From positions 2,347 to 66,346 of the forward strand of contig CAZCSM010000006.1 in assembly GCA_964501355.1 (NCBI GenBank): a stretch of 64,000 nucleotides of DNA. Reading direction: 5' to 3'. Position numbers and translations under genes: made by a program. Positions 23,020 through 61,081 of this stretch are shown piece after piece (position 1 is the stretch's first letter; each line of letters opens with the position of its first letter). The notes beneath the pieces are model-generated. The model was not told the DNA's origin. It searched no databases and was given only the letters and a program-made list of their open reading frames with translations. Source of the DNA: an uncultured Candidatus Saccharibacteria bacterium. Lineage in GTDB: Bacteria > Patescibacteriota > Dojkabacteria > CAZCSM01.

Positions 23020-24729
23020 ATGGCTATTAGCGTTGCCGAACTACAAAAAGCCCTTGTTGAGTCAAAAAAACTGAGTGCTGAGGATTTTGATAAAATTAAC
23101 GAAACCGCGAATCGGTTGAATTCTACCGTAGAGCAGGTTCTTCTCGGAAAGGGTTTCTTCTCAGAAGCCGAATTGGGAGCATTACTTGCGAAACGCTATG
23201 GTGTTGATTTTGTTGAATTAGGTAAGCAGGAAATCACTCCTGACATATTGTTCTCCATTCCAAAGGAAATTGCCAGTCGAAAGAAGGTTATTGTATTCGC
23301 TAAGGACCGCGGAATAATGAGTGTGGCAATGTCAAATCCCTTAGATTTGGAAACACTCGATTACATAAAGAAGAGTACAGGATATAACGTAAAGGTATAT
23401 TACGCATTTGAAGAAAGTATTAATGATGCTCTGCGTGCCTATCAAAAGGATATCAAGTTAGCTTTTGTAAATTTAATTGAGGAACAGGCCGAGAAGACAA
23501 AAAAAGAGAAGGGGGCTATTGAGGATGTTGCGAAAAAGATTCCTATTGTTAAGTTGGTTGACACGCTTATCGAATATGCTGTTAATGAGGGGGCCAGTGA
23601 TATTCACATTGAGCCTTTAGAAGAAGAGGTTTTGATTAGATACCGAATAGATGGACAGCTTAGAGATATAACTACGCTTCCAAAAGAAATTCTTCCCATT
23701 CTGATTGCAAGAATTAAAATCATTGCCAATTTACAAATAGATGAGCATCGTTTACCACAGGACGGAAGAATAAACACTATAGTTAACAATAGTAAAGTTG
23801 CTCTTCGAGTCTCTGTTCTTCCTCTATTCTACGGTGAGAAGATAGTGATGAGAGTTTTAGAAGAAACTGCACGGCGTTTCAGTTTGGAGGATCTAGGTGT
23901 TTTAAACCACAACCTCGAGGTTATGAAGAGAAATATCTCGAAGCCCCATGGAATGGTTTTGGTGACCGGGCCGACAGGTAGCGGAAAAACAACCACTCTT
24001 TACACGGTGCTTAGCATTCTCAATACAACTGATGTTAATATTAATACAATTGAAGATCCGATTGAATACAGTATGCCTCGAATCAACCAGACTCAGGTTA
24101 ATGCGAAAATCGGTTTTACATTTAGCGTTGGGTTGAGATCTCTTCTACGGCAGGACCCTGACATAATCATGGTCGGTGAAATTCGTGACAAGGAAACTGT
24201 ACAAATGGCTGTCAATGCTGCAATGACGGGCCACCTTGTTCTGTCCACATTACATACAAATAATGCAGCAGCATCTATCCCGCGTCTTTTGGATATGGGT
24301 GTTGAACCATTTCTTGTAGCTTCAACGCTAAATGCTGTAATGGCTCAGCGATTAACTCGGAAACTTTGTAACGAATGTAAGGAAAAGTATGAGATTCCCG
24401 AGAAGCTGCTAGCGAGCCTTAAAACAGATCTTGAAAAACAAGGATTAACTGCTGCACAGATAAAAGAGGCTGTGGGAGACGGTCATTTCTACAAACCCAT
24501 TGGTTGCAAAAAATGCGGCAATAAAGGTTACAAGGGACGACTTGGTATCTACGAGGTCTTAGAGATGTCCCCAAAGATTATGGAATTAGCTGTATCTGAT
24601 GTCGTTACATATGAGCTTCAAAAGACCGCTATTAAGGAAGGTATGACTACAATGTTATATGATGGAATTACAAAGGCTCGCGAAGGTTTGACCACTTTAG
24701 AAGAAGTATTAGCCGCAACTAGAGAATAA
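23020..24729 (+). CDS. pilB: Type IV pilus assembly ATPase PilB (GspE family), locus 1
   Basis: N-terminal GSPII_E_N domain, Walker A VTGPTGSGKTTTLY, Asp/His boxes, and a tetracysteine CNEC...CKKCG. Confidence 0.85.
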   Translation: MAISVAELQKALVESKKLSAEDFDKINETANRLNSTVEQVLLGKGFFSEAELGALLAKRYGVDFVELGKQEITPDILFSIPKEIASRKKVIVFAKDRGIMSVAMSNPLDLETLDYIKKSTGYNVKVYYAFEESINDALRAYQKDIKLAFVNLIEEQAEKTKKEKGAIEDVAKKIPIVKLVDTLIEYAVNEGASDIHIEPLEEEVLIRYRIDGQLRDITTLPKEILPILIARIKIIANLQIDEHRLPQDGRINTIVNNSKVALRVSVLPLFYGEKIVMRVLEETARRFSLEDLGVLNHNLEVMKRNISKPHGMVLVTGPTGSGKTTTLYTVLSILNTTDVNINTIEDPIEYSMPRINQTQVNAKIGFTFSVGLRSLLRQDPDIIMVGEIRDKETVQMAVNAAMTGHLVLSTLHTNNAAASIPRLLDMGVEPFLVASTLNAVMAQRLTRKLCNECKEKYEIPEKLLASLKTDLEKQGLTAAQIKEAVGDGHFYKPIGCKKCGNKGYKGRLGIYEVLEMSPKIMELAVSDVVTYELQKTAIKEGMTTMLYDGITKAREGLTTLEEVLAATRE

Positions 24730-25952
24730 TGAAATTTAAATATACAGTTACAGACAAAAAGGGGCAGGTTGTAAAAGGCGAGATGGTTGCTCGAACACAG
24801 TCAGAGATTGAATCCAATCTTCTGGAGGATGGTTATACTGTTTTGGCGATTGAGCCGGAAAAGGAATCGTCGGAATCTTCAAAAAAACAATCCGCACTTT
24901 TTCAAAAGAAAATTTCGTTACAGGAAAAGATTCTTCTTTTCACAAACTTGGCGGCAATGCTTAAGGCTGGATTGCCTGTTGTTGATGCGATTGATGTCCT
25001 AAAGGAAGGTCAAAAGAATCAGAGATTGATAGAAATACTAGATGTAGCAAGTTATGACATCCAGGGTGGTATGACCTTTCATTCCGCATTGAGCAAGTTT
25101 CCCGATGTTTTTACGACAATGGACCTTAGTATGTTTGAAGTCGGAGAAGTAGGAGGTATGTTAGAAGAGAATATCAGAACGCTGGCAACAGAATTAAAGA
25201 ATCAAAAAGATCTTCAGTCGAAAGTAAAAGGTGCAATGATGTACCCTATGGTGATTTCAATTGCTTTGGTGGCAATCGTAATATTGCTTATTATTTTCGT
25301 AATACCGCAGATTGCAGGCTTTTTCAAAGACGCTGATTTGGAGTTGCCAATTACAACAAGAATGTTAATCGGATTAAGTGACCTTCTTATAAATTATGGC
25401 ATATATGTTCTCGCGGTTGTAATTGCTGCCATAGTTGCTTTTCGCACAACATATAAGAAAGTAAAGAATTTCAAGCGGATGATTGACGGACTATTATTAA
25501 AGATTCCATTTGTTGGTGTTCAGATTATTAAATTAAATACAGCAAGATTTACAAAAACGTTAGCATCTCTTTTAAAAAGCGGAGTTCCAATTATTCGTTC
25601 TTTGGAAATTACGAAAAATGGCTTTTCTAATTTGATTTATCAAGAGGCTCTTGAAAGTATTGCTCAAGATATTGAATCTGGTCAAGAACTTGCAGATGCG
25701 ATGGCAAAGTTTCCAAACATCTTTTACTCAATGGCTGTTAGGATGGTAAGAGTAGGGGGGCAGACGGGAACTATCGACGAATCTCTACTAAACGTGGCGA
25801 TATATTATCAAGAAGAAGTCACGGAAATTCTCGACAACTTATCCTCTATTATAGAACCTGTTTTATTACTTGTAATGGGTGGTGGAATTGCACTAATTGC
25901 ATTATCTGTACTTGGACCTATTTATCAATTAACCGGGAGTATATCTCAGTAA
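24729..25952 (+). CDS. pilC: Type IV pilus inner-membrane platform protein PilC (GspF family)
   Basis: Two T2SSF repeats and three TM segments. Translationally coupled to pilB. Confidence 0.85.
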   Translation: MKFKYTVTDKKGQVVKGEMVARTQSEIESNLLEDGYTVLAIEPEKESSESSKKQSALFQKKISLQEKILLFTNLAAMLKAGLPVVDAIDVLKEGQKNQRLIEILDVASYDIQGGMTFHSALSKFPDVFTTMDLSMFEVGEVGGMLEENIRTLATELKNQKDLQSKVKGAMMYPMVISIALVAIVILLIIFVIPQIAGFFKDADLELPITTRMLIGLSDLLINYGIYVLAVVIAAIVAFRTTYKKVKNFKRMIDGLLLKIPFVGVQIIKLNTARFTKTLASLLKSGVPIIRSLEITKNGFSNLIYQEALESIAQDIESGQELADAMAKFPNIFYSMAVRMVRVGGQTGTIDESLLNVAIYYQEEVTEILDNLSSIIEPVLLLVMGGGIALIALSVLGPIYQLTGSISQ

Positions 25953-35854: not shown

Positions 35855-36570
35855 GAAGCTTTGGGTATATCAATCCAAGAACGAGAATCTATTCAGCCTG
35901 TTTTCCCGTCTTTATAATAAGAATCCTCTATGAGGATTCTCTCACTTTTGTTTATTAATACGGCGGATTGTAATCATGCAAAACTTTAAGAGGCATTAGT
36001 AAAGAGTGGGGGAGTAGGGGCCTCAAGATTAGAGATTGATAATTATTATCCCATAATTATAAAACTATAGGACCTGGAGTTAATAAAGTTTTAATAATTC
36101 AAAATAGGGTGAAACGGACAGTGAAACAGGAATACGCGTAACATTCATAGCTTACTGTGGATAAGTACCCCTGTGACCATATCCTCGGGGGAGACCCGGT
36201 TTAACACAAATAATGTATAAATAATAATTGTATTTATCTTATAAACGTTGATGGTGGAGGATTAAATAGATGAATATTATTCTAATTATTCCCCATTAGG
36301 GCGCGTTGATCTAAAATGTTTGCAAATCGACAATCTGAGTGCTAATATAAGAGCATAAACTATTTCGTATAATCACCCTTATGCGAAGTACTGTGTCGAC
36401 AGGGAGCGACGGGGCAGTCCCCTGTTCTATTTTCAATATTTGCTGATTTATCTCTTTGCTTCTATAATTAATTTGAATTATTAATCATTTATTTTTATAA
36501 ACAATTCTTTTATTTACCTTTCGGTCTTGTATTCGTTCTATTACTATTAACTTTCATTGAAAATACGCTT

Positions 36571-37686
36571 ATGGTTGCTTTAGATCCCCTATCGATTGAA
36601 ATTCCTTATAAAGAGGACTTTTTGATTGATTTGACAAACAATAATTACTCTATTGAAACTGTTTATAACTACGGTAGGGATCTTACGGTCTTTGAAAGGT
36701 TTCTACAATCACGTAAAGTTCCATTTGAGAAGTTGGATAAAAGGACGATTAGTTTGTACAAAGGATTTTTACGCTCAGGGAAACATTTGGAAATAATAAA
36801 TGAGCTTCGAGATAGAGAAGAATTTTTGAAAATTACGGGACATGCTTCAATTAACATTGGTGATACGGCAGAATCTCGTGTGACGAATTCTAAGGGGGTT
36901 CTAAGCGACGATAAGGTTGCAGGTGCTACACGAGGTGCTTTGCAAAATACAAGTTTGAATAAACTCTCGGCTCGATCTGTGAATCGGATGCTTTCTGCTC
37001 TCAGATCTTACCTCGGATATTTGCTCGACTATGATTATGTATGTCCGATTGCTCCCGAAGTTATTAAACTTATAAAAACGGAACGTAAAGAATCTCAAGT
37101 TGCTGATCTTGATGAATTAATTCAAATTATCGAAGCTTCAGAATTATATGAGGAAGATGACTTTGTTAAACTTCGAAATCGTGCAATGCTTGAAGTTCTT
37201 TTTTCAACTGGGATGAGAATCTCTGAACTTGTTAGTTTAGGAACTGCGGATATTAATGCGGAAGGTAAGATCTATATTATGGGTAAAGGAAAGAAGCAGC
37301 GTATGGTTTATTTGACCGAAAGGGCTAGGGGGCATTTGAATGAGTATATGAAGAGAAGAGGGACTTCTGAATTTTCTACCTCCCCTGCTCTATTTTTATC
37401 TTCTCGCGGTCAGGGGAAAAATACGAGAAAAAGTCGAATAACTCCACGTTATGTTCAGATGAAAATTCAACAATATCGCAAACTTTTGGGGATTGTGGTT
37501 CCGGTGACGCCACATGGTTTGAGGCACGGTTTCGCAACTTATTTGGCTGAAGAAGGCGCAAATCCGGCGGCGATCCAGAGGCTTCTCGGTCATGAATCTC
37601 TTCAAACTACGACAAGATATGTGCATGCGTCGGATAAATTTGCAGAGGAAACACATAAGAAATATCATCCGCTGGCGGTGGGATAA
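36571..37686 (+). CDS. Tyrosine site-specific recombinase/integrase (XerC/D-phage integrase family) with an enlarged N-terminal SAM-like domain
   Basis: C-terminal catalytic motifs HGLRH and LLGHESLQTTTRYVH, with R...K...H.R..Y placement. It follows a 716-bp non-coding region. Confidence 0.8.
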   Translation: MVALDPLSIEIPYKEDFLIDLTNNNYSIETVYNYGRDLTVFERFLQSRKVPFEKLDKRTISLYKGFLRSGKHLEIINELRDREEFLKITGHASINIGDTAESRVTNSKGVLSDDKVAGATRGALQNTSLNKLSARSVNRMLSALRSYLGYLLDYDYVCPIAPEVIKLIKTERKESQVADLDELIQIIEASELYEEDDFVKLRNRAMLEVLFSTGMRISELVSLGTADINAEGKIYIMGKGKKQRMVYLTERARGHLNEYMKRRGTSEFSTSPALFLSSRGQGKNTRKSRITPRYVQMKIQQYRKLLGIVVPVTPHGLRHGFATYLAEEGANPAAIQRLLGHESLQTTTRYVHASDKFAEETHKKYHPLAVG

Positions 37687-37890
37687 GAAAATTAAAAATT
37701 AAAAATTAAAAAGTAAAAAAGAAATTTTACGGTTTCAGTGGCAGGGACAGGATGAGGGTTTTTGTAGTCTGGAAAGTGCAATGCACTGTTACTCGTCACT
37801 GAATTTGTGTAAAAAATCTCTTGCAATCAGGCGGATTTTTGATAATATATGTCATATACTTATAAATATTTATAGTTTTGTGTCACAAAC

Positions 37891-38514
37891 ATGCGTTTTT
37901 TAGATTTTAAACAAAAGCTTGAAGGTTTTGTAGTATTTTCTTTGGATGATATTGGGGCTTTTGATCCGAATTTTAATATGGTTCAATTGTCGCAGTGGCA
38001 AAAGAAAAATTACATTAGGAAAATTATAAAGGGAAAGTATATTTTCTCTGATTCAGATTTAAATGAAAAACATCTTTTCTTAATCAGTAATGAGCTTTTG
38101 TCGCCGTCATATATTTCATTAGAAACGGCACTTTCGTGGTATGGAATAATACCCGAAGGTGTTTATACGATAACGGCGGTTTCACCTATTCGAACTATGG
38201 ATTATCAAGTTTCAATTGGTAATTTTTCTTACAATAAGATAAAGAAGTCGGCTTTCTTCGGAGATGTTGTGAATGAGATTCCCGGAACTAAGAGAAAATA
38301 TAGGATTGCTTCAATAGAAAAAGCCATTATTGATTATTTGTATTACCACAAAGAAATAGTATCTTCTGATGATATCGATGCTTTGCGATTTAATAGTACT
38401 GTCATAAAAAACGGTTTAGACTTTAATCTCTTCATTTCATATGCGAAGGTTATTGAAAACGCAGAGTTATTGAAAAGAGCCAATATTTTTGTAAAGTATT
38501 TTGAGAATGCTTAA
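37891..38514 (+). CDS. AbiEi-family type IV toxin-antitoxin antitoxin/transcriptional regulator
   Basis: N-terminal winged-helix segment FSLDDIGAFDPNFNMVQLSQWQKKNYIRKIIKGKY is typical of the AbiEi_4 domain. It overlaps the downstream toxin by 14 bp. Confidence 0.65.
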   Translation: MRFLDFKQKLEGFVVFSLDDIGAFDPNFNMVQLSQWQKKNYIRKIIKGKYIFSDSDLNEKHLFLISNELLSPSYISLETALSWYGIIPEGVYTITAVSPIRTMDYQVSIGNFSYNKIKKSAFFGDVVNEIPGTKRKYRIASIEKAIIDYLYYHKEIVSSDDIDALRFNSTVIKNGLDFNLFISYAKVIENAELLKRANIFVKYFENA

Positions 38515-39280
38515 ATTAAGTGAAATTAAAGAGAATTATTCTCCTAAATTACAGGTTTTCTCAAGAGGAATTCTGAGAGAATATATTCAATACAAGATTC
38601 TTGAGGTTATTTATAGTTCCAAATTTGCTTCGAAGTTGGTTTTCATGGGCGGAACAGCTCTTCGAATTGTTTATGATAATCAGAGGTTTTCTGAAGATTT
38701 AGACTTTGATAATTTTTCTTTAACAGTTGATGATTTTGAGAATCTTACCAATTTAATAGAGAATTCTTTGGAGAATGAGGGTTATGAAATAGAGATTAGG
38801 AATGTCTACAAAGGTGCTTTTCATTGTTATATCAAAATTCCGAAAGTATTGCAGCTTGAGGGTTTATCTGATATTTCGAACGAAAAGATTACGATTCGAA
38901 TTGATACAACTCCTCAAAATTATGATTATAAGAAGGGTTTATTTTTGATTGATAAATTTGGTGTGTATCAGAATATTTCTGTTGTCCCAATAGAGCTTTT
39001 GATGGCACAGAAGTTTGCTGCGATTTTAGGCAGGAAACGTGCAAAGGGTCGAGATTATTTTGATTTGTCGTATTTGTTTGGTTTGGGTGTTGAACCTGAT
39101 ATGTTATATATTGAAAAGAAATTAGGGTTTTCAAATTTGTCTGAACTTCGGATTGCTGTTCTCGATCATCTTAAGAATGTAAATTTGGAGGATATGGTTA
39201 AAGATGTGGAAAAGTTCTTGTTTAATCCTAGTCACACTGACAGAATAAGAAATTTTCCGCAAATGATAGAAAAGCTTTGA
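38501..39280 (+). CDS. AbiEii/AbiGii-family nucleotidyltransferase toxin (DUF1814)
   Basis: Motifs FMGGTALRIVY and RFSEDLDFD match the nucleotidyltransferase-fold abortive-infection toxin. Confidence 0.75.
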   Translation: MRMLKLSEIKENYSPKLQVFSRGILREYIQYKILEVIYSSKFASKLVFMGGTALRIVYDNQRFSEDLDFDNFSLTVDDFENLTNLIENSLENEGYEIEIRNVYKGAFHCYIKIPKVLQLEGLSDISNEKITIRIDTTPQNYDYKKGLFLIDKFGVYQNISVVPIELLMAQKFAAILGRKRAKGRDYFDLSYLFGLGVEPDMLYIEKKLGFSNLSELRIAVLDHLKNVNLEDMVKDVEKFLFNPSHTDRIRNFPQMIEKL

Positions 39281-50288: not shown

Positions 50289-52088
50289 ATGTACGCGTCT
50301 CAAAGCGTTGCTGAAAAATTACTCGAAAAAGGTACTATTAACGCGGATCAATTCTCTGCGGCTCGTTCAGAATCATTGCGAAAAGGCGTTGCGGTAGAAG
50401 ATGTCTTACAAAGCGATGGTGTTGTAAGTGGTGTTGATATTGCAAAAGCAAAGTCTGAAATTTATGATATCCCGTTTGTTGATCTCCTTGAATTATCCTT
50501 TGATAAAGATGTAATAAGCAAAATCTCAGCTGATGTTGCTCGTCGTCAGAACGCTATTCCATTCAAAGCAACCGAAACCGCTCTTGAAATTGCCATGAAA
50601 GATCCTTTGGATATTCAGGCTGTAAACTATCTCTCAAAATTAATCGGACAAAGGATAATTCCTTATTATGCCGATCCGGCTGCGATTGAGAAAGTGATTG
50701 ATTCTCAGTATAAAGAAGAGTTTGCTGGTGAAGTTACGGAAGCTATTGAAGAAGTTTCAGAGGATAAACCAAAGGAAATTGAAGAGCAGATTTCTGATGT
50801 TGGAAAAGTTGAAGAAGAGATTCAGCGTGCACCTGTCGCTCGTATTATCAATATGATGCTTGAGTACGCTGTTAAATCAAAGGCTTCTGATATTCATATT
50901 GAGCCAAGTGAAACGAAGCTTCGAGTTCGGATGAGAATACATGGTGTTCTAGTTCAAAAACTTGAAATGCCAATGAGTGTTCATCCTGCACTTGTTTCTA
51001 GAATCAAAATTTTGGCGAAACTGAAAATTGATGAAAAGAGAGTTCCTCAGGATGGTCGTTTTGGTATAAAACTGAAGGGGAAAGAAGTTGACCTTCGTGT
51101 CTCTACGTTACCTACAATTGACGGTGAAAAAGTTGTTATTCGTTTGCTTGATCGTTCAAGCGGAATTTTTAGTTTAGAGGAAACGGGGCTTAGAGGAAGT
51201 GCATATAAATCATTTTTAGAAGCCTTAACCTTAACGACAGGAATTGTGCTTGTGACGGGTCCGACCGGTAGTGGTAAAACACAAACTCTTGCAAGTTCAC
51301 TTGATAGGATTAATACAGAGAAAATAAATATTATCACACTTGAGAATCCTGTTGAAATTAAGATTCCCGGTGTTAACCAGGTTAATGTTAATCCTGATGC
51401 TGGGCTAACTTTTGCCTCAGGTCTTCGCTCTATTCTTCGTCAGGACCCTGATGTTGTGATGGTCGGTGAAATTCGTGATGGAGAAACGGCAAGACTTGCA
51501 ATGCAGGCTTCTTTGACTGGTCATTTGGTGTTTTCTACACTTCACACGAATAGTGCGGCGGGAGCACTTCCTAGGCTTATTGATATGGGAATTGAGCCAT
51601 ACCTTATTGCTTCCACCGTTCATTTGGTTGCAGCACAAAGACTTCCTCGAAAAATTTGTCCTTTTTGCATGGAGAGCTATGTGGCTACCCCCGAGGTCGC
51701 AAAAGATATTGTCGATGTACTGGGTAACTTAAAGATTGATATTGTCTCTCACTCGAAACAATATTGCCCAGTTTGCAAAGCAGGACAACCCTGCCCTCAT
51801 ACAGAAATTGAAAAGGATGATATTCCTGACATTGATCAATTAATTCTTTTCCGAGGGAAAGGATGCGAAAAGTGTGAAGGAAGCGGTTATTCAGGAAGAA
51901 TTGGAATTTATGAAGTATTGAATGTTACTGACAAGATTGGTAAATTAGTAATGGAACAAAGCTCTACAAGTCAGATTGACGATTTGGCCAGAGCGGAAGG
52001 CATGATTTCAATGACACAGGATGGGTACTTGAAAGCTTTGGAGGGAATAACTACGATTGAAGAAGTTTTAAGAGTTTCAAAAGCATAA
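50289..52088 (+). CDS. pilB: Type IV pilus/T2SS assembly ATPase (PilB/GspE), locus 2
   Basis: GSPII_E_N-like N-terminus, Walker A VTGPTGSGKTQTLA and an extended Cys cluster CPFC..CPVC..C..C. Confidence 0.85.
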   Translation: MYASQSVAEKLLEKGTINADQFSAARSESLRKGVAVEDVLQSDGVVSGVDIAKAKSEIYDIPFVDLLELSFDKDVISKISADVARRQNAIPFKATETALEIAMKDPLDIQAVNYLSKLIGQRIIPYYADPAAIEKVIDSQYKEEFAGEVTEAIEEVSEDKPKEIEEQISDVGKVEEEIQRAPVARIINMMLEYAVKSKASDIHIEPSETKLRVRMRIHGVLVQKLEMPMSVHPALVSRIKILAKLKIDEKRVPQDGRFGIKLKGKEVDLRVSTLPTIDGEKVVIRLLDRSSGIFSLEETGLRGSAYKSFLEALTLTTGIVLVTGPTGSGKTQTLASSLDRINTEKINIITLENPVEIKIPGVNQVNVNPDAGLTFASGLRSILRQDPDVVMVGEIRDGETARLAMQASLTGHLVFSTLHTNSAAGALPRLIDMGIEPYLIASTVHLVAAQRLPRKICPFCMESYVATPEVAKDIVDVLGNLKIDIVSHSKQYCPVCKAGQPCPHTEIEKDDIPDIDQLILFRGKGCEKCEGSGYSGRIGIYEVLNVTDKIGKLVMEQSSTSQIDDLARAEGMISMTQDGYLKALEGITTIEEVLRVSKA

Positions 52089-52116: not shown

Positions 52117-53244
52117 ATGCCCGAAGATACAACACAAACAAGCGCAAGTGTTACTGCAGTACCTACTCAAGCATTGAAACCTTCAGGACCTTTGACTATG
52201 GCGAAGCTTTTGCAGCTCGTTGTTGATAGAGATGCTTCGGATCTTCATCTTACTGCCGGTTATCCTCCTATTCTTCGAATTGACGGAAAGCTTGTTTCTT
52301 ACGGAGTTAAACCTTTGGAAGCGGAAGATGTAAAAAAGCTTGTTTTGCAGACATTACCGGATGAACAAAAGGAACTACTTGAGGTGAACAAAGAAGTTGA
52401 TTTGTCATATGCTTTCGAAGAAAAAGCAAGATTTAGAATCAACGCCTATAACGAGAGAGGAAATGTTGCTGCTGCATATCGTTTGATTCCACAGGAGATA
52501 AGGTCTATGGAAACGTTGGGACTTCCGCAAATCTTTCATGAATTCACAAAACTTCCACAGGGTCTGGTTTTGCTTACAGGTCCTACCGGACATGGAAAAA
52601 GTACTACGCTTGCTGCTCTATTGAATGAAATTAATATGACCCAGGCAAGACATATTGTTACGATCGAAGACCCTATTGAATACCTTTACCCTGTTGGAAA
52701 ATCTCTTGTTGATCAAAGAGAGCTTCACAGAGATACTCATTCTTGGGAGATTGCTCTTCGAAGTGTTCTTCGTCAGGACCCTGATGTTGTTCTTCTCGGT
52801 GAGATGCGAGATTACGAAACAATTTCAGCGGCAATAACAGTTGCTGAAACGGGTCATTTGGTATTTGCGACTTTGCATACAAATAGTGCATCTCAATCAA
52901 TCGATAGAATAATCGATGTTTTTCCTGAACATCAACAGGCTCAGACACGAACACAGCTTGCAAATATTCTTGAAGGGGTTGTTTCTCAGCGACTTGTCCC
53001 CGTAATAGGTGGTGGTCGAAAAGCTGTTGTTGAAGTAATGCTTGCAACATCTGCCGTCAGGAATACAATTAGAGAAGGTAAAACATACCAAATTGATAAT
53101 ATTATTGCAACCAGTGGTGATGTGGGGATGATAAGTTTAGAGAAGTCACTTGTGAATCTTGTTCGCGAAGGAAAGCTAACGCTTGAAGAAGCTCAAGCCC
53201 ACTCTCTCAAACCAGAGGAGATTGTAAGATTGGTTCGGGGATAA
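52117..53244 (+). CDS. pilT: Twitching-motility retraction ATPase PilT
   Basis: Walker A LTGPTGHGKSTTLAAL plus the PilT-specific motifs GEMRD and AHSLKPEE. Confidence 0.85.
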   Translation: MPEDTTQTSASVTAVPTQALKPSGPLTMAKLLQLVVDRDASDLHLTAGYPPILRIDGKLVSYGVKPLEAEDVKKLVLQTLPDEQKELLEVNKEVDLSYAFEEKARFRINAYNERGNVAAAYRLIPQEIRSMETLGLPQIFHEFTKLPQGLVLLTGPTGHGKSTTLAALLNEINMTQARHIVTIEDPIEYLYPVGKSLVDQRELHRDTHSWEIALRSVLRQDPDVVLLGEMRDYETISAAITVAETGHLVFATLHTNSASQSIDRIIDVFPEHQQAQTRTQLANILEGVVSQRLVPVIGGGRKAVVEVMLATSAVRNTIREGKTYQIDNIIATSGDVGMISLEKSLVNLVREGKLTLEEAQAHSLKPEEIVRLVRG

Positions 53245-53264
53245 AGGAAAATTTAAAATTAAAA

Positions 53265-53633
53265 ATGAAAAATTTTAAAAAAGAGGAGAAAATTCAGTAT
53301 AGGGCTTATGCTTTTTCTCTTAATGTTATAAATCTTTTAAAGAGAAGTAAGAAACATGATTATATAAACGAGGTTCTTTTCAAGCAAATACTTCGTTCTG
53401 TAACTTCGATTGGAGCAAACATTATTGAGGGTCAAGCGGGAATTAGTCGTAAGGAGTTTCGAAATTATATGAGTATTGCACTCAAAAGTGCAAATGAAAC
53501 AAAATATTGGTTAGCACTAATACGAGATTTAAGGATATTTGTGAAAGATGATGTTGACTCGTTAATAGAAGAGTCAATAGAGATTGCAAATATATTAGGA
53601 GCGATTGTCTTCAAGTTAAGGAAAAATGACTAA
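53265..53633 (+). CDS. Four-helix-bundle protein (23S rRNA intervening-sequence protein family)
   Basis: 122 aa. SIGANIIEGQ...SANETKYWL matches the TIGR02436-type four-helix bundle. It is flanked by inverted A/T-rich repeats. Confidence 0.7.
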   Translation: MKNFKKEEKIQYRAYAFSLNVINLLKRSKKHDYINEVLFKQILRSVTSIGANIIEGQAGISRKEFRNYMSIALKSANETKYWLALIRDLRIFVKDDVDSLIEESIEIANILGAIVFKLRKND

Positions 53634-53680
53634 TGTGGAATGTTTTTGAATTTTTAACTTTTAATTTTTAATTTTCTTTT

Positions 53681-54895
53681 ATGCCGAAATTTTACTATAC
53701 AGCTAGAACTAAAACGGGAGAAGAACGAAAAGGAGATGTCGAGAGCAATTCAAAAGGTCAAGTTGCCGACTTGCTTCGCTCAAAAGGACTCGTTCCTATT
53801 GAAATTGATGAACAGAGAGGCTTCAACTTTGAGAAGCTTTCTGAAACGAATGTCGGCGGAGTGCCCATGAACGAGAAGGTTGTCTTTATGAGGCAGCTTG
53901 CGACCATGGTCGGTGCAGGATTACCACTTGTTCAAAGTATCGAAATTCTACAAGCTCAAGCTCAGAATAAGGCTTTTCAGGTTGCTCTAAAGAATATTGT
54001 AGATGCAATTCGTGGAGGTAGTAATCTTGCAGATTCAATGGATAAACAAACGGGAGTGTTTGATGAAATTACTGTTAATCTTGTCCGTGTTGGTGAGGAA
54101 ACAGGAAAGTTGGAGGAGATATTCAATCGTCTTGCGGATGATATGGAAGATCAGCGAACTTTTAGAAGCAAAGTTCAAAGTGCAATGGTCTACCCAATAA
54201 TCATAATTCTAGTTATGGTTGCGGTCGTTGGGATTCTTCTTGTCACAATGGTGCCTCAAATGACTGAAATGTATCAGGAATTTGATGCTGAACTTCCTCT
54301 TCCCACGAGGATGATGGTTTGGTTGAGTGATGTTTTAATTAATTATTGGTGGTTGGTAGGACTTCTTGTTGCTATTGTTGTAGGAAGTTTCGTTGCTTAT
54401 CGTAGATCTCCCGCCGGTCGAGAAATTACTGATAGTCTAATGTTAAAGATTCCGGTTTTTGGGAAATTGATGAGAGATGTTCAGGTCGCCGATTTCACAA
54501 GAACTTTTGAGTTGATGATGGCTAGCGGTATTGATATTACAAAGGCACTTGAAGTAACAGCTGCATCCCTCAGCAATATCATGTTTCGAAAAACAGTTGA
54601 GGCGACGATTAAGAAAGTAGAAAAAGGTGTTCCTCTCGCTGTGCCGATTTCTGAAGATCCCAACTTTCCTGTGATTGTCAGCCAGATGATTGCTGTCGGT
54701 GAAGAAACCGGGAAAGTCGATGTAATCCTGGGCAAATTAAATGAGTATTACACGGAAGAAGTTAACCATACAGTAAATAACTTGACAGCTTTATTGGAAC
54801 CAATTATCTTAGTAGTGATGGGTACTGTTGTAGGATTTATTGCTATAGCAATTTACCTTCCAATATTCCAAATTGGAGAAACAATGGGCGTTTAA
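53681..54895 (+). CDS. pilC: Type IV pilus platform protein PilC/GspF, locus 2
   Basis: Two T2SSF repeats and three TM helices. 404 aa. Confidence 0.85.
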   Translation: MPKFYYTARTKTGEERKGDVESNSKGQVADLLRSKGLVPIEIDEQRGFNFEKLSETNVGGVPMNEKVVFMRQLATMVGAGLPLVQSIEILQAQAQNKAFQVALKNIVDAIRGGSNLADSMDKQTGVFDEITVNLVRVGEETGKLEEIFNRLADDMEDQRTFRSKVQSAMVYPIIIILVMVAVVGILLVTMVPQMTEMYQEFDAELPLPTRMMVWLSDVLINYWWLVGLLVAIVVGSFVAYRRSPAGREITDSLMLKIPVFGKLMRDVQVADFTRTFELMMASGIDITKALEVTAASLSNIMFRKTVEATIKKVEKGVPLAVPISEDPNFPVIVSQMIAVGEETGKVDVILGKLNEYYTEEVNHTVNNLTALLEPIILVVMGTVVGFIAIAIYLPIFQIGETMGV

Positions 54896-58263: not shown

Positions 58264-58307
58264 CAGAAAAGATTTTGATATAAGTCAGTTTTGTGTAATA
58301 CTGGTTT

Positions 58308-58342
58308 AAAAGATAAAAGATAAAAGATAAAAGATAAAAGAT
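58308..58342 (+). repeat. Heptanucleotide tandem repeat (AAAAGAT)x5 running into the ATG of the downstream gene
   Basis: Five perfect units read directly, ending ...AAAAG-ATG at 58341. Confidence 0.8.
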
Positions 58343-59096
58343 GAAAATCTGTGGTTATAGCAAAAATGAAAAAGGTCAGGTTTTATTGATGGTTATTATT
58401 ACCAGCACTATTGCTCTGCTTATAGTCACAGGTGTTTTTATGAGAGTTATGAAGTTAACACGTCAGGGTGTTGAGATGGAAACACACGATGCTGCATTTA
58501 GTGCTGCAGAAAAATACGCTAGACAGATCTTAGATCAACTAGAGTTAGGAAATACTGTGTCAGATACAACTTTGCAACAATGGGTTACTAATTACGATGA
58601 TTTAATTGCTGCAAGCAGAAATGAAATCAATAATATAAATGGATATTCTTTGGAAGATGGTAGTTCTTTTGAGATGGTTGGGGAAATGACCGGTTCTACA
58701 ACCTTCAAAATAGGTTCAGGATCTTGGGGAGATGTACGTATTCTTTTCACCTCCGTTGTTTATTCAGGGGGGCAATATTCAGTTCAAAAAAGAATATTTA
58801 AAACATGTAGTAATACTGATGGTGATTTGACAGCAGTTACATGTGCTTCTGCTTTGGATGTAGATACTTTTACTTATACACATCAGCCAGGCGAGGTTAC
58901 AGTACGAATGAAGCCAATCGGCGGAAAGGTCTCTTTAAATATAAATTCTTCTGCTAATCTATTTAATGAGTTTTCGTTTACAACTCGTGAAGAAGGCACT
59001 TTGTCCGAAGCCACATTATCAGTTCCTGTCTCAAAATCAATGCCTTCCCTATTCGATCATGTTTTGTATAATGGAAAAAGTCAAATTAATAAATGA
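58341..59096 (+). CDS. PilX-like pilus-associated protein. Paralog of the 27399-28715 gene.
   Basis: N-terminal EKGQVLLMVIITSTIALLIV shares the EKGQV-plus-hydrophobic anchor with the locus-1 PilX-like protein. Confidence 0.4.
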   Translation: MKICGYSKNEKGQVLLMVIITSTIALLIVTGVFMRVMKLTRQGVEMETHDAAFSAAEKYARQILDQLELGNTVSDTTLQQWVTNYDDLIAASRNEINNINGYSLEDGSSFEMVGEMTGSTTFKIGSGSWGDVRILFTSVVYSGGQYSVQKRIFKTCSNTDGDLTAVTCASALDVDTFTYTHQPGEVTVRMKPIGGKVSLNINSSANLFNEFSFTTREEGTLSEATLSVPVSKSMPSLFDHVLYNGKSQINK

Positions 59097-61081
59097 ATGT
59101 GTTTTTAGGAAAATCTATGGGAAAAATTTTGTTTAAAACTTTACTGATTGCTATTTCACTGATTATATTTGGGGGAATCTATTTCTTTTCCGGAAAGCCC
59201 ATTTTTGCAGCATGTGGAGATACTTGTTGTGTCTATTATTGGAAAGATGGTGCTGGAAACGATGTGTGCGGGGATTGGGATACTATTAGATGCGATGGGT
59301 GTTCTCAGAATCCTCCAGTATGTTGCGGACATTGTGGACCTTGTGCGCCAGCACCTTCTGCCGTTTGTGGAAATGGAAGTAAAGAAGGTTCTGAGCAGTG
59401 CGATGATGGTAATACAACAAGTGGGGACGGGTGTAGTAGCTCATGTATAACTGAGTTTTGCGGTGATGGGACGACACAGAACTGGCCTGGGCATACGGAA
59501 GAGTGTGACGATCATAATACAACAAGTGGGGACGGGTGTAGTAGTTTATGTATAACTGAGTTTTGCGGTGATGGTATCATACAGAATTGGCCGGGACATA
59601 CCGAGCAGTGTGATGATTGGGGTACTGCGCCTAATGATGGTTGTAGCGCAACTTGTCAAAAAGAGGTTTGGCCAATAGCAAAAATAGAGGCAATGGATAT
59701 CAACAATAATTTAATAGAGCATAACGCTCCTGGAGGTATACCTGATCTTAATCAGTATAAGGAGCTTAATCGTAGTACAAGTGATGATTATTTGAGACTT
59801 TCTACTGAGGGTCAAATTCCATTTGGATATAACATAGATCGAATAGAAATGTATTTTCGTAAAAGATATAACTTTGATGGAGCAGTTCCTTCATTAGCGG
59901 AGGCTCAGGCTGAATGTACCAACGGCTGGAGTACACCTCCTTCAAATCCCAGCTCCGCTTGGTGTGTTTATCAGACACCTCTATCATGTACATCTGGAAC
60001 ATGTTCTTCTTCAAGTGATTTTGCAACCTGGGACCCAGGCAATTACTCTTCAGGTTATTATGAATTCGTTATCAATGCTTTTGCGGATGGTGGTAATTGT
60101 ACGGGAAACCGAGATCATGATGGATATAATGCTGCGTTAGGTGTTCAAACCATAGCTCCTTGGTATGATTGTGATCCATATACGACGGAGGATGAAAGTA
60201 ACACGGTTTTCCCCAATCCTTGGTCCGGGGTAAATGAAGAAAGTGACTCTTTACAGATTGCATTGCTAGATAGCTGCGGAAATGGTATTAAAGAGGAATC
60301 TGAAGAATGTGACGATGCAAATGCTAGCAATTTTGATTCTTGTCGAGATAATTGTCTCTGGAACGTTTGTGGTGATGAGTATCCAAATACTGATGGAGAT
60401 CTTACAGATGCAACACAGACCCCACCGGCAAATAGCTATGTTGAAGAATGTGATCAAGGTGGTAATAATGGAACGGGACATGGTTGTGCACTTGATTGTT
60501 CTTTCGAAAATGGTGCTTGGTTTAGAACCTGGGATGGCGATATTTACTCAAGTGAGGGTGTCACTCAACGTGTCTCTGCAGACGTCCCCCTAGATCCTGT
60601 ATTCTCAACATATATGTGTTATGACAGTTATGGTATTTTCACAGTTGGGTTAGGATGTTTCAATACAAATATACTTGATGACGAGCCTAATTCGCCTTTT
60701 TATGTTGACTTGGATTTGAGTACAAGCGAGATTTCTCCTGTGGAAATAAAGACAAACGAAGAGTTTGTGAAAATACAAGCAAAATTATCTGGATTTACAA
60801 ATGAACAGAATTTTAGCAATAATGGAGTTGAAGTTACATTTTATAATGTTGCGGGAGGAGTCCGTACTATGCCGGAAAGAATAGAAGATAATAGAATCGT
60901 TTACTTGTCTGATAATCTAGAAATTGGGGAGAATATTGAATATAGTGAATCTTGCGCTGATGAGAAATCGTGTTCTTTATTAATTGTTGTAGATGGTAGT
61001 GTTACAATTACAAAAGATGTTGAGCATATAGACGCCTTCATTATTGCAAGTGGTAGAATTATAGTTGAGAGTGGGTATTAA
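59093..61081 (+). CDS. Secreted/membrane-anchored protein with Myxococcus-type cysteine-rich repeats
   Basis: Signal anchor, then tandem CG(N/D)G...E(Q/E)CDDGNTTSGDGCSS.C repeats (the TIGR02232-type pattern) and a large Cys-rich beta domain. Confidence 0.6.
   Translation: MNVFLGKSMGKILFKTLLIAISLIIFGGIYFFSGKPIFAACGDTCCVYYWKDGAGNDVCGDWDTIRCDGCSQNPPVCCGHCGPCAPAPSAVCGNGSKEGSEQCDDGNTTSGDGCSSSCITEFCGDGTTQNWPGHTEECDDHNTTSGDGCSSLCITEFCGDGIIQNWPGHTEQCDDWGTAPNDGCSATCQKEVWPIAKIEAMDINNNLIEHNAPGGIPDLNQYKELNRSTSDDYLRLSTEGQIPFGYNIDRIEMYFRKRYNFDGAVPSLAEAQAECTNGWSTPPSNPSSAWCVYQTPLSCTSGTCSSSSDFATWDPGNYSSGYYEFVINAFADGGNCTGNRDHDGYNAALGVQTIAPWYDCDPYTTEDESNTVFPNPWSGVNEESDSLQIALLDSCGNGIKEESEECDDANASNFDSCRDNCLWNVCGDEYPNTDGDLTDATQTPPANSYVEECDQGGNNGTGHGCALDCSFENGAWFRTWDGDIYSSEGVTQRVSADVPLDPVFSTYMCYDSYGIFTVGLGCFNTNILDDEPNSPFYVDLDLSTSEISPVEIKTNEEFVKIQAKLSGFTNEQNFSNNGVEVTFYNVAGGVRTMPERIEDNRIVYLSDNLEIGENIEYSESCADEKSCSLLIVVDGSVTITKDVEHIDAFIIASGRIIVESGY
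59402..59650 (+). repeat. 108-bp tandem DNA repeat, about 2.3 copies, encoding the 36-aa Cys-rich repeat
   Basis: gatggtaatacaacaagtggggacgggtgtagtag...gagtgtgac repeats at 59510 with roughly 90% identity. Confidence 0.7.

Follow-up and report, generated by a model that had tools for sequence, protein, structure and literature searches.

Why does a gene for a four-helix-bundle (4HB) protein of the 23S rRNA intervening-sequence (IVS) type lie inside a pilus operon, between the genes for the retraction ATPase (pilT) and the platform protein (pilC)? The case comes from an uncultured Candidatus Saccharibacteria bacterium (Dojkabacteria in GTDB; assembly GCA_964501355.1), in a stretch of 64,000 nucleotides (nt) of contig CAZCSM010000006.1 that was analyzed as a whole and is here called the window. 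The initial annotation placed the gene in the pilT-pilC gap between inverted A/T repeats and proposed a small mobile or insertion-prone module. Indeed, the coordinates and sequences of the gene, the gap and the repeats check out, and the element sits on the coding strand exactly from the pilT stop codon to the pilC start codon (Table 1). In the reading that we favor, and hold to be probable, it is an IVS-type cassette in which a promoterless 4HB gene of the S23p family lies between imperfect inverted arrays of about four to five heptamers each. The original observation is confirmed, and an S23p cassette of IVS type, placed outside rRNA, is the class that suits the element best.

The two arms of the element are 43 nt each and 84% complementary, and their local-alignment score is 54, compared with 16.3 in shuffled flanks (z=17). 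That they are inverted repeats is real, but the description of them as A/T repeats missed their build: AAAATTN heptamers stand in tandem in both arms, with 17/21 self-matches at a lag of 7 nt in the 5′ arm and 18/21 in the 3′ arm. The 5′ arm takes in the ATG and the first five codons of the 4HB gene, and the 3′ arm extends into the pilC start codon. Within the cassette there is no transposase-like open reading frame (ORF), and no promoter- or terminator-like site was found on the + strand within 53245-53680. No direct repeat at the cassette boundaries is evident on reading the sequence, a feature for which no systematic search was made. Rfam detects no rRNA in the window, and the element lies between pilT and pilC, outside any 23S or 16S helix.

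The 4HB ORF is matched by the profile hidden Markov models PF05635 (E=1.5e-23; 83.4 bits against a cut-off of 33.8) and TIGR02436 (E=1e-25; 90.1 bits against a cut-off of 24), and its product matches PDB entry 2RLD (E=2.6e-17). The AlphaFold2 monomer model (pLDDT 92, with the N-terminal residues 1-7 at low confidence) has helices at residues 10-26, 33-57, 62-88 and 94-120. Its best Foldseek matches are BT_0352 (2RLD; TM 0.79-0.89) and Xcc0516 (2GSC; TM 0.8); more distant is bAvd (4DWL, 8UB7), a protein of diversity-generating retroelements (DGRs). The predicted structure is therefore a four-helix bundle like the solved S23p members, of which 2RLD and 2GSC were deposited with five chains; the window protein was modelled as a monomer. 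R44, S48, N52 and E55 fit the R/S/N/E spacing of the conserved S23p motif, GxxRxxxSxxxNxxE (PMC3936711), with F38 at the position of the leading G. Across 41 homologues, S48, N52 and E55 never vary, and R44 is kept in at least 90%. Neither PADLOC nor PHROGs gave a match, and a scan of viral contigs returned one distant locus only.

Is the gene a resident of the operon or a newcomer? A PilT search with one genome per GTDB species retrieved 80 loci, the best relatives being uncultured Patescibacteria (candidate phyla radiation, CPR) genomes with at most 66% identity, and closer relatives were reached through PilC. About 65 of the 80 loci retain the order pilB-pilT-pilC, with pilT and pilC overlapping or at most ~20 nt apart, apart from four in which the gap is roughly 90-200 nt; in none of these ~65 loci does a 4HB gene stand between pilT and pilC. 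In one retrieved locus (L043) a 4HB gene occurs one junction further, after pilC. The closest relative (L167), whose PilC is 93% identical, has a pilT-pilC spacer of 434 nt in which no 4HB gene was detected, also with the HMMER filters off. DNA homology between it and the window breaks off at the pilT stop codon and returns only near the pilC start, no more than a few bases ahead of it, and the cassette sequence has no counterpart there. Relatives with 81% and 65% PilC identity have spacers of 249 and 227 nt that are non-homologous, rich in other heptamer runs and devoid of a 4HB gene, and no 4HB remnants were found in the relatives' pilT-pilC spacers. At the level of aligned sequence, these comparisons show the 4HB cassette to be an insertion relative to all relatives examined. 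Because the spacers of the three close relatives are non-homologous, the junction is, as far as these alignments reach, a turnover hot spot in the lineage, and the cassette is particular to the window's genome when set against the relatives recovered.

The comparison with relatives called for by the initial annotation thus came out in its favor: pilT and pilC abut in the ~65 loci, and the 4HB gene, far from standing at the same place in all relatives, is absent from the junction of every relative examined. Its idea of an insertion-prone module is further borne out by related cassettes in unrelated contexts, described below. Its own control, a second pilus locus of the window ("locus 1"), fares less well. 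There pilB (23020-24729) is directly coupled to a pilC-like gene (24729-25952), as stated, but locus 1 has no pilT and is not a like-for-like control. As an observation on the 434-nt spacer itself (L167, 2619-3052), it contains runs of the heptamers AAAGGAA and ACAGTAA and of the reverse complement of AAATTCG, as well as a palindrome, GTCATGCTGAGCTTGTCGAAGC...CTTCGACAGCTCGGGATGA. Folded as ORF-less hairpins, the L167 and L170 spacers are weak (z about −1.5).

The arrangement recurs throughout the 4HB family. The first three other 4HB loci that were opened lie between MFS and rsmA, Wzy and pilin, and pilC and peptidase genes, and all three have inverted heptamer arrays, with the units AAAATTN, AGTGAAW and GTGTCAA. 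A profile of the 41 homologues fetched 80 metagenome loci, 67 of which had at least 110 nt of flank and, together with the window and the three loci opened first, form a set of 71 non-redundant loci. The strongest self-match lag is 7 nt in 65/71 upstream and 67/71 downstream flanks, and in 94% of the loci the two flanks match as inverted repeats with z>3 (upstream flank against reverse-complemented downstream flank). This complementarity is locus-specific: an arm scores a median of 39 with its own partner and 26 with partners taken from other loci, and at 23 of the 71 loci the true partner outscores all 20 random ones, against ~3.4 loci expected. Furthermore, over 1.3 Mb, stringent period-7 arrays occur at a 21-fold higher density near 4HB genes than away from them, and periods of 5, 6, 8, 9, 10 and 11 are almost absent under the strict criterion. 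The outer arm ends fall a median of 1 nt from the upstream stop codon and 5 nt from the downstream start codon, of the 88 cases that could be determined, 85 have co-oriented neighboring genes, and the 5′ arm typically enters the first few codons of the ORF (for example, ATGCAAA-ATAACAA-TTCAAAA). Together, the data indicate, from sequence comparison, that 4HB genes travel packaged with inverted heptamer arrays, and that the packages of the Patescibacteria loci fit from stop codon to start codon.

The heptamer unit itself is different at almost every locus, and even where two ORFs are 95% identical their arrays are markedly different. Contigs from different samples that encode identical proteins (L081-083, L084-086 and L167-168) are 100% identical and hence uninformative on copy-number polymorphism of the arrays. 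Arrays of one contig tend to share the local arm unit (9 of 21 at rank ≤13%, with ~2.8 expected); this set includes the array beside the window's integrase, and base composition is a confounder. The unit-sharing of solo arrays is compatible with arrays acting as recombination substrates.

Does the package move as a unit? In many pairs of cassettes the ORFs are 77-85% identical in nucleotide sequence and the flanks have no detectable similarity; in one such pair, the homology spans the ORF with its two arms and goes no further than the outer array ends. Syntenic pairs give dN/dS values of 0.05-0.18, which at the sequence level show the 4HB protein to be under strong purifying selection. A plasmid sample from Cyanobacteria, Bacteroidota and Spirochaetota, independent of the metagenome loci, contains the same arrangement with other units: (AATTCAA)n on Aulosira and Nostoc plasmids, (CCAGTGA)n in Euhalothece, (CCCCAAT)n and (CGTAAAT)n in Planktothrix, (TAATTCG)n and (GAATTTG)n in Dolichospermum, (ATTTTAG)n in Gloeocapsa, (AGTGATT)n in Bernardetia and (GGAGAGC)n in Treponema. 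By these comparisons, the unit shown to recur in unrelated contexts and across phyla is the ORF with its inverted heptamer arrays.

On plasmids the cassettes split coupled gene pairs (L171, L173, L176, L180, L182 and L183), among them cas2-cas1, drmD-MmeI, hsdS-hsdR, RND adaptor-permease and helicase-methyltransferase; in the hsdS-hsdR cassette the ORF is frameshifted. The cas2-cas1 junction is filled in Nostoc TCL26-01 and Anabaena PCC 7122 (L171, L173) and empty in Nostoc UHCC 0870 and N. edaphicum (L184, L185), whose two genes either overlap or are separated by 2 nt. At the filled junctions the left boundary is the cas2 start codon, ~65 nt of the 3′ end of cas1 are replaced, and the cassette is antisense. 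Multi-copy matches in Nostoc flagelliforme were discarded as evidence for mobility, being segmental duplications of the plasmid backbone. These data indicate, again by comparison of loci, that the packages insert between neighbors of tightly coupled operons, including pilT-pilC, cas2-cas1, hsdS-hsdR and RND adaptor-permease. A 2013 study took 4HB genes in cas operons as a functional association (PMC3936711); this association of 4HB genes with CRISPR may reflect insertion and not function, and operon "associations" of 4HB genes would become insertions, not functional links.

How might an operon accommodate such an insertion? When the RNA of 53225-53705 is folded, both the minimum-free-energy and the centroid structure contain a long-range stem of 13+10+8 bp that pairs 53241-53275 with 53645-53682, and the hairpin of the arms only has −26.9 kcal/mol (z=−4.5). 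At the predicted stem base, the pilT stop codon (U53242-A-A) is paired to 53679-53681, so that its U faces the A of the pilC AUG. We propose that the cassette is likely transcribed by read-through of the pilus operon and that, in the RNA, the arms would pair as an A-U stem of ~31 bp, with the ORF looped out and the pilT stop codon brought beside the pilC start. A ribosome ending pilT would then melt the 5′ strand at the stem base, which would free the pilC start and, in part, the 4HB start; through this melting, pilT-pilC coupling would survive the insertion. A Shine-Dalgarno-like motif precedes only 2 of 42 window genes, and the organism appears to start translation largely without Shine-Dalgarno pairing, so that start-site accessibility should govern initiation. 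For the same reason AAGGA at 53245-53249 was rejected as a Shine-Dalgarno sequence of pilC approached via the stem. By analogy with rRNA IVSs, the stem is probably a substrate of RNase III, whose cutting would make such insertions tolerable. RNase III acts on intercistronic hairpins in the early mRNA of phage T7, and long-range coupling operates in MS2 and in E. coli infC-rpmI-rplT. As in these systems, the predicted intercistronic stem brings the upstream stop codon beside the downstream start; unlike them, it encloses a whole foreign ORF.

Several observations weigh against this account. Mismatches in the arms are G.U in 99 cases and A.C in 91, which is no preference and leaves selection at the RNA level unsupported; the complementarity therefore looks like a decaying DNA-level inverted duplication rather than a selected sense-RNA stem. 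The stem is, furthermore, almost purely A-U, at 84% complementarity, and RNase III cleavage and translational coupling at the cassette are putative. Several cyanobacterial plasmid cassettes are antisense to their neighbors, so that read-through expression is not universal. There is no near-identical second copy, the nearest other homologue of the window protein being 55% identical, which gives no support to a recent transposition of the window copy. No mechanism of DNA mobility emerged, with no transposase, evident target duplication or conserved ends. As a working guess, movement could occur by recombination or slippage at the heptamer arrays, solo copies of which are found in the same genomes as well, and array recombination would possibly be helped by a pentameric, nucleic-acid-binding 4HB protein.

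Some of these points fit a different view, in which the arms are DNA-level terminal inverted repeats of a non-autonomous transposon, mobilized in trans or by the 4HB protein, and the RNA stem is a by-product. The absence of asymmetry between G.U and A.C mismatches is what it would lead one to expect, the arms are part of the moving unit, cyanobacterial copies occur in either orientation, and the sharing of a local arm unit among arrays of a contig (9/21 at rank ≤13%, against ~2.8 expected) points the same way. However, the end sequence is not conserved across copies, the heptamer unit varying at almost every locus; no transposase was found in or near the cassettes, nor a tyrosine recombinase nearby; reading the sequence revealed no boundary direct repeat, with no systematic search made; and the nearly constant sense orientation and stop-to-start fit of the CPR copies are left unexplained. 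Insertion sequences and miniature inverted-repeat transposable elements likewise differ from the cassettes, in which the arm unit varies between loci and no transposase-like ORF is present. We therefore regard the DNA-level transposon as rather unlikely, while noting that it is compatible with, and not exclusive of, the IVS-type cassette.

The initial annotation also tied the cassette to an integrase gene through an 18-mer held in common. The match, GAAAATTAAAAATTAAAA at 37687-37704 (+) and 53659-53676 (−), is exact and exceeds what composition predicts: allowing up to two mismatches, the window contains 7 matches against 0.11 expected from whole-window shuffles, and under an intergenic-only null (67.5% A+T) 2% of simulations produce a common 18-mer. 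The link to the integrase is nevertheless unsupported, because the 18-mer is (AAAATTA)2.5, common to two arrays that are both built of the AAAATTA unit. No inverted partner of the integrase-side array (37688-37719) was found, no 4HB remnant was found beside the integrase (37687-37890), and homologues of the window integrase number 0 in the 316 kb around 80+ other 4HB cassettes. An integron-like mechanism, in which this recombinase recognizes AAAATTA and inserted the module, could draw on the exact 18-mer (P about 0.02 under the intergenic null), but the 18-mer falls inside two tandem arrays, the one on the integrase side is solo, and the enzyme, which is the only recombinase, is XerC/D-like and encoded 15.5 kb upstream beside an AbiE-type module. 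Integron cassettes do resemble the element in carrying a promoterless single ORF co-oriented with host transcription and in a flanking element whose symmetry, not its sequence, is conserved; they differ in that the 4HB ORF has two heptamer-array arms, one on each side, rather than a single attC, that IntI and attI are lacking, and that 4HB cassettes are scattered singly inside ordinary operons. The integron-like reading is very improbable and already largely refuted, and the integrase is not involved. The stretch 36571-39280, which comprises the recombinase, a 207-aa ORF of unknown function and an AbiEii-family toxin (38501-39280), is possibly a small mobile or defense islet separate from the cassette.

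Equally improbable is a resident accessory gene of the pilus operon whose A/T flanks are the leader and spacer typical of an AT-rich genome that does without Shine-Dalgarno motifs. The genome does have this character, and in a relative (L057) runs of similar A-rich heptamers stand ahead of pilin genes. This reading is already contradicted at the sequence level by the absence of the gene from all related pil operons, the 93% relative included, by the occurrence of 4HB genes in many unrelated operons, and by arms that are complementary in a locus-specific manner and elsewhere have GC-containing units. Least probable of all is an Avd accessory gene of a DGR, or a remnant of one: the fold resembles bAvd, which as Avd forms a homopentamer that binds RNA and a reverse transcriptase within the DGR ribonucleoprotein (4DWL, 8UB7), but identity to it is 11-14%, the window protein is structurally nearest to 2RLD and 2GSC, which are stand-alone S23p proteins, the neighbors are gyrB, holB, pilB, pilT, pilC, pilins, prepilin peptidase and pilM, and Pfam searches of the neighbors revealed no reverse transcriptase within ~8 kb on either side, template and variable repeats not having been searched for separately.

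The IVS-type cassette, in turn, has its closest known counterpart in the rRNA IVSs of Coxiella and Leptospira, with which it has in common the protein family, a size of ~430 nt, terminal inverted repeats with a predicted stem around the ORF, heptamers immediately before the ATG, and an ORF with a weak or absent ribosome-binding site (PMC4990558). The IVS in the 23S rRNA of Coxiella burnetii has an S23p ORF and a 28-bp stem of terminal inverted repeats cut by RNase III, and just before the ATG lie 3-4 GACAGAT heptamers, in a number that varies between strains (PMC4990558). RNase III cleavage of the IVS is experimental in Coxiella and is reported as established for Leptospira and Salmonella (PMC4990558). 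The element in the window differs in its site, the pilT-pilC spacer rather than 23S rRNA helix 25 or 45, and in its ORF family, which purifying selection maintains (dN/dS 0.05-0.18) while the ORF of Coxiella decays; processing by RNase III, shown for Coxiella, is putative for the cassette. ORFs of the 23S_rRNA_IVP type are also scattered in rRNA insertions of CPR bacteria (bioRxiv 10.1101/2024.02.27.582315). In the open-access literature, only the Coxiella IVS matches the architecture and no general link between 4HB genes and heptamer arrays was found; an earlier description elsewhere is possible.

Heptamer direct repeats near start codons have been described, with no link to 4HB genes, in Beggiatoaceae (TAACTGA) and cyanobacteria (PMC4679880). 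Both these and the short tandemly repeated repetitive (STRR) sequences of cyanobacteria resemble the cassette arms in that 7-nt units stand in tandem between genes, the array often stops at a start codon and the unit sequence is lineage-specific, but they are free-standing, with a suggested regulatory role, whereas the cassettes are inverted pairs around a 4HB ORF. Such inverted pairs around a 4HB ORF also occur on plasmids of Nostoc, Aulosira and Planktothrix. The window arrays are STRR-like by form only, their unit being different from the published STRR consensus sequences. The cyanobacterial STRR heptamers were reportedly described by Mazel et al. in 1990, and we know of no explanation for them since.

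Taken further, 4HB genes and inverted heptamer arrays could represent one unrecognized class of transposase-less mobile cassette, acted on by a pentameric 4HB protein, a proposal that we put forward tentatively and think possible without expecting it. Such a class would span Patescibacteria, Cyanobacteria, Bacteroidota, Spirochaetota and Proteobacteria, with rRNA IVSs as the best-known landing site, and it would leave behind, or land on, free-standing arrays (STRRs, ORF-less hairpins and short IVSs). The 4HB pentamer might bind arrays of about five units and perhaps prime copying with a polymerase or a reverse transcriptase, as Avd does in DGRs. Already the joint travel of 4HB genes and heptamer arrays that the data indicate links two old puzzles, the heptamer repeats and the S23p/IVS family, whose members are annotated as "four helix bundle protein" in many genomes with no role assigned. 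With a defined RNA stem, protein and repeat units, the cassette offers a testable system for spread without a transposase and for tolerance by the host.

The window is gene-dense, with 38% G+C. Upstream of the pilus operon, gyrB and holB lie on the opposite strand, and pilC is followed by genes for a pilin, a prepilin peptidase, pseudopilins and pilM. The features of the locus and of the integrase region are collected in Table 1.

Table 1. Coordinates of the cassette, its arms, the surrounding pilus genes and other features of the window
Feature	Coordinates	Strand	Details
Tyrosine recombinase, XerC/D-like	36571-37686		PF00589 + PF02899
Solo AAAATTA array	37688-37719	+	x4.6; directly after the recombinase stop codon; source of the common 18-mer
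pilB	50289-52088		pilus operon
pilT, retraction ATPase	52117-53244	+	PF00437, E=4.7e-45; stop codon 53242-53244 in predicted stem base
5′ arm	53238-53280	+	AAAATTT/AAAATTA/AAAATGA/AAAATTT heptamers; array 53248-53274, x3.9
Whole inserted cassette (5′ arm + 4HB ORF + 3′ arm)	53245-53680	+	pilT-pilC gap, 436 nt
4HB / 23S rRNA IVS (S23p) gene	53265-53633	+	122 aa; PF05635, TIGR02436
3′ arm	53643-53685	+	reverse complement of AAAATTN heptamers; array 53644-53675, x4.6
pilC, platform protein	53681-54895	+	PF00482, E=1.5e-59
DUF4215 repeat protein	59093-61081		662 aa

Several minor observations concern arrays and hairpins outside the window. In one locus (L090, 2877-2960), a complete cassette is followed at once by an ORF-less mini-hairpin (−20 kcal/mol, z=−2.8) that still begins AUGCAAAAC; it resembles what an internal deletion would leave and recalls the short ORF-less rRNA IVSs. 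Arrays of AAAATCC, AAAATTC and AAAATTA units lie in or abut the leader-coding region of type IV pilin genes (L030, 12005-12040 and 12475-12557; L057, 8279-8311 and 11305-11338), one such leader peptide being MMKNPKSKIQ...GFTL. Slippage by a 7-nt unit within a coding leader would shift the frame, and these are therefore candidate phase-variable pilins of Patescibacteria. Heptamer arrays also lie near pilT in non-CPR genomes, Acidobacteriota-like and Riflebacteria (L070, 3062-3100; L073; L068; L077), and one of these loci has an inverted pair, (CGGATTT)n and (AAATCCG)n, 1.8 kb apart (L073, 1187-1226 and 3036-3082).

Within the window, an (AAAAGAT) array of 5.7 units at 58304-58348 supplies, with its final unit, the ATG of an ORF at 58341-59096 (251 aa, no Pfam match); this array is solo, its unit differs from that of the cassette, and no inverted partner was seen. 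Directly before the recombinase gene lies an A/T-rich stretch of 716 nt (35855-36570) with several inverted repeats, in which no ORF of at least 100 aa and no Rfam family at the gathering threshold was found. Finally, the gene for the DUF4215 repeat protein contains a 105-nt tandem repeat at 59396-59617 (x2.1, 84% identity).

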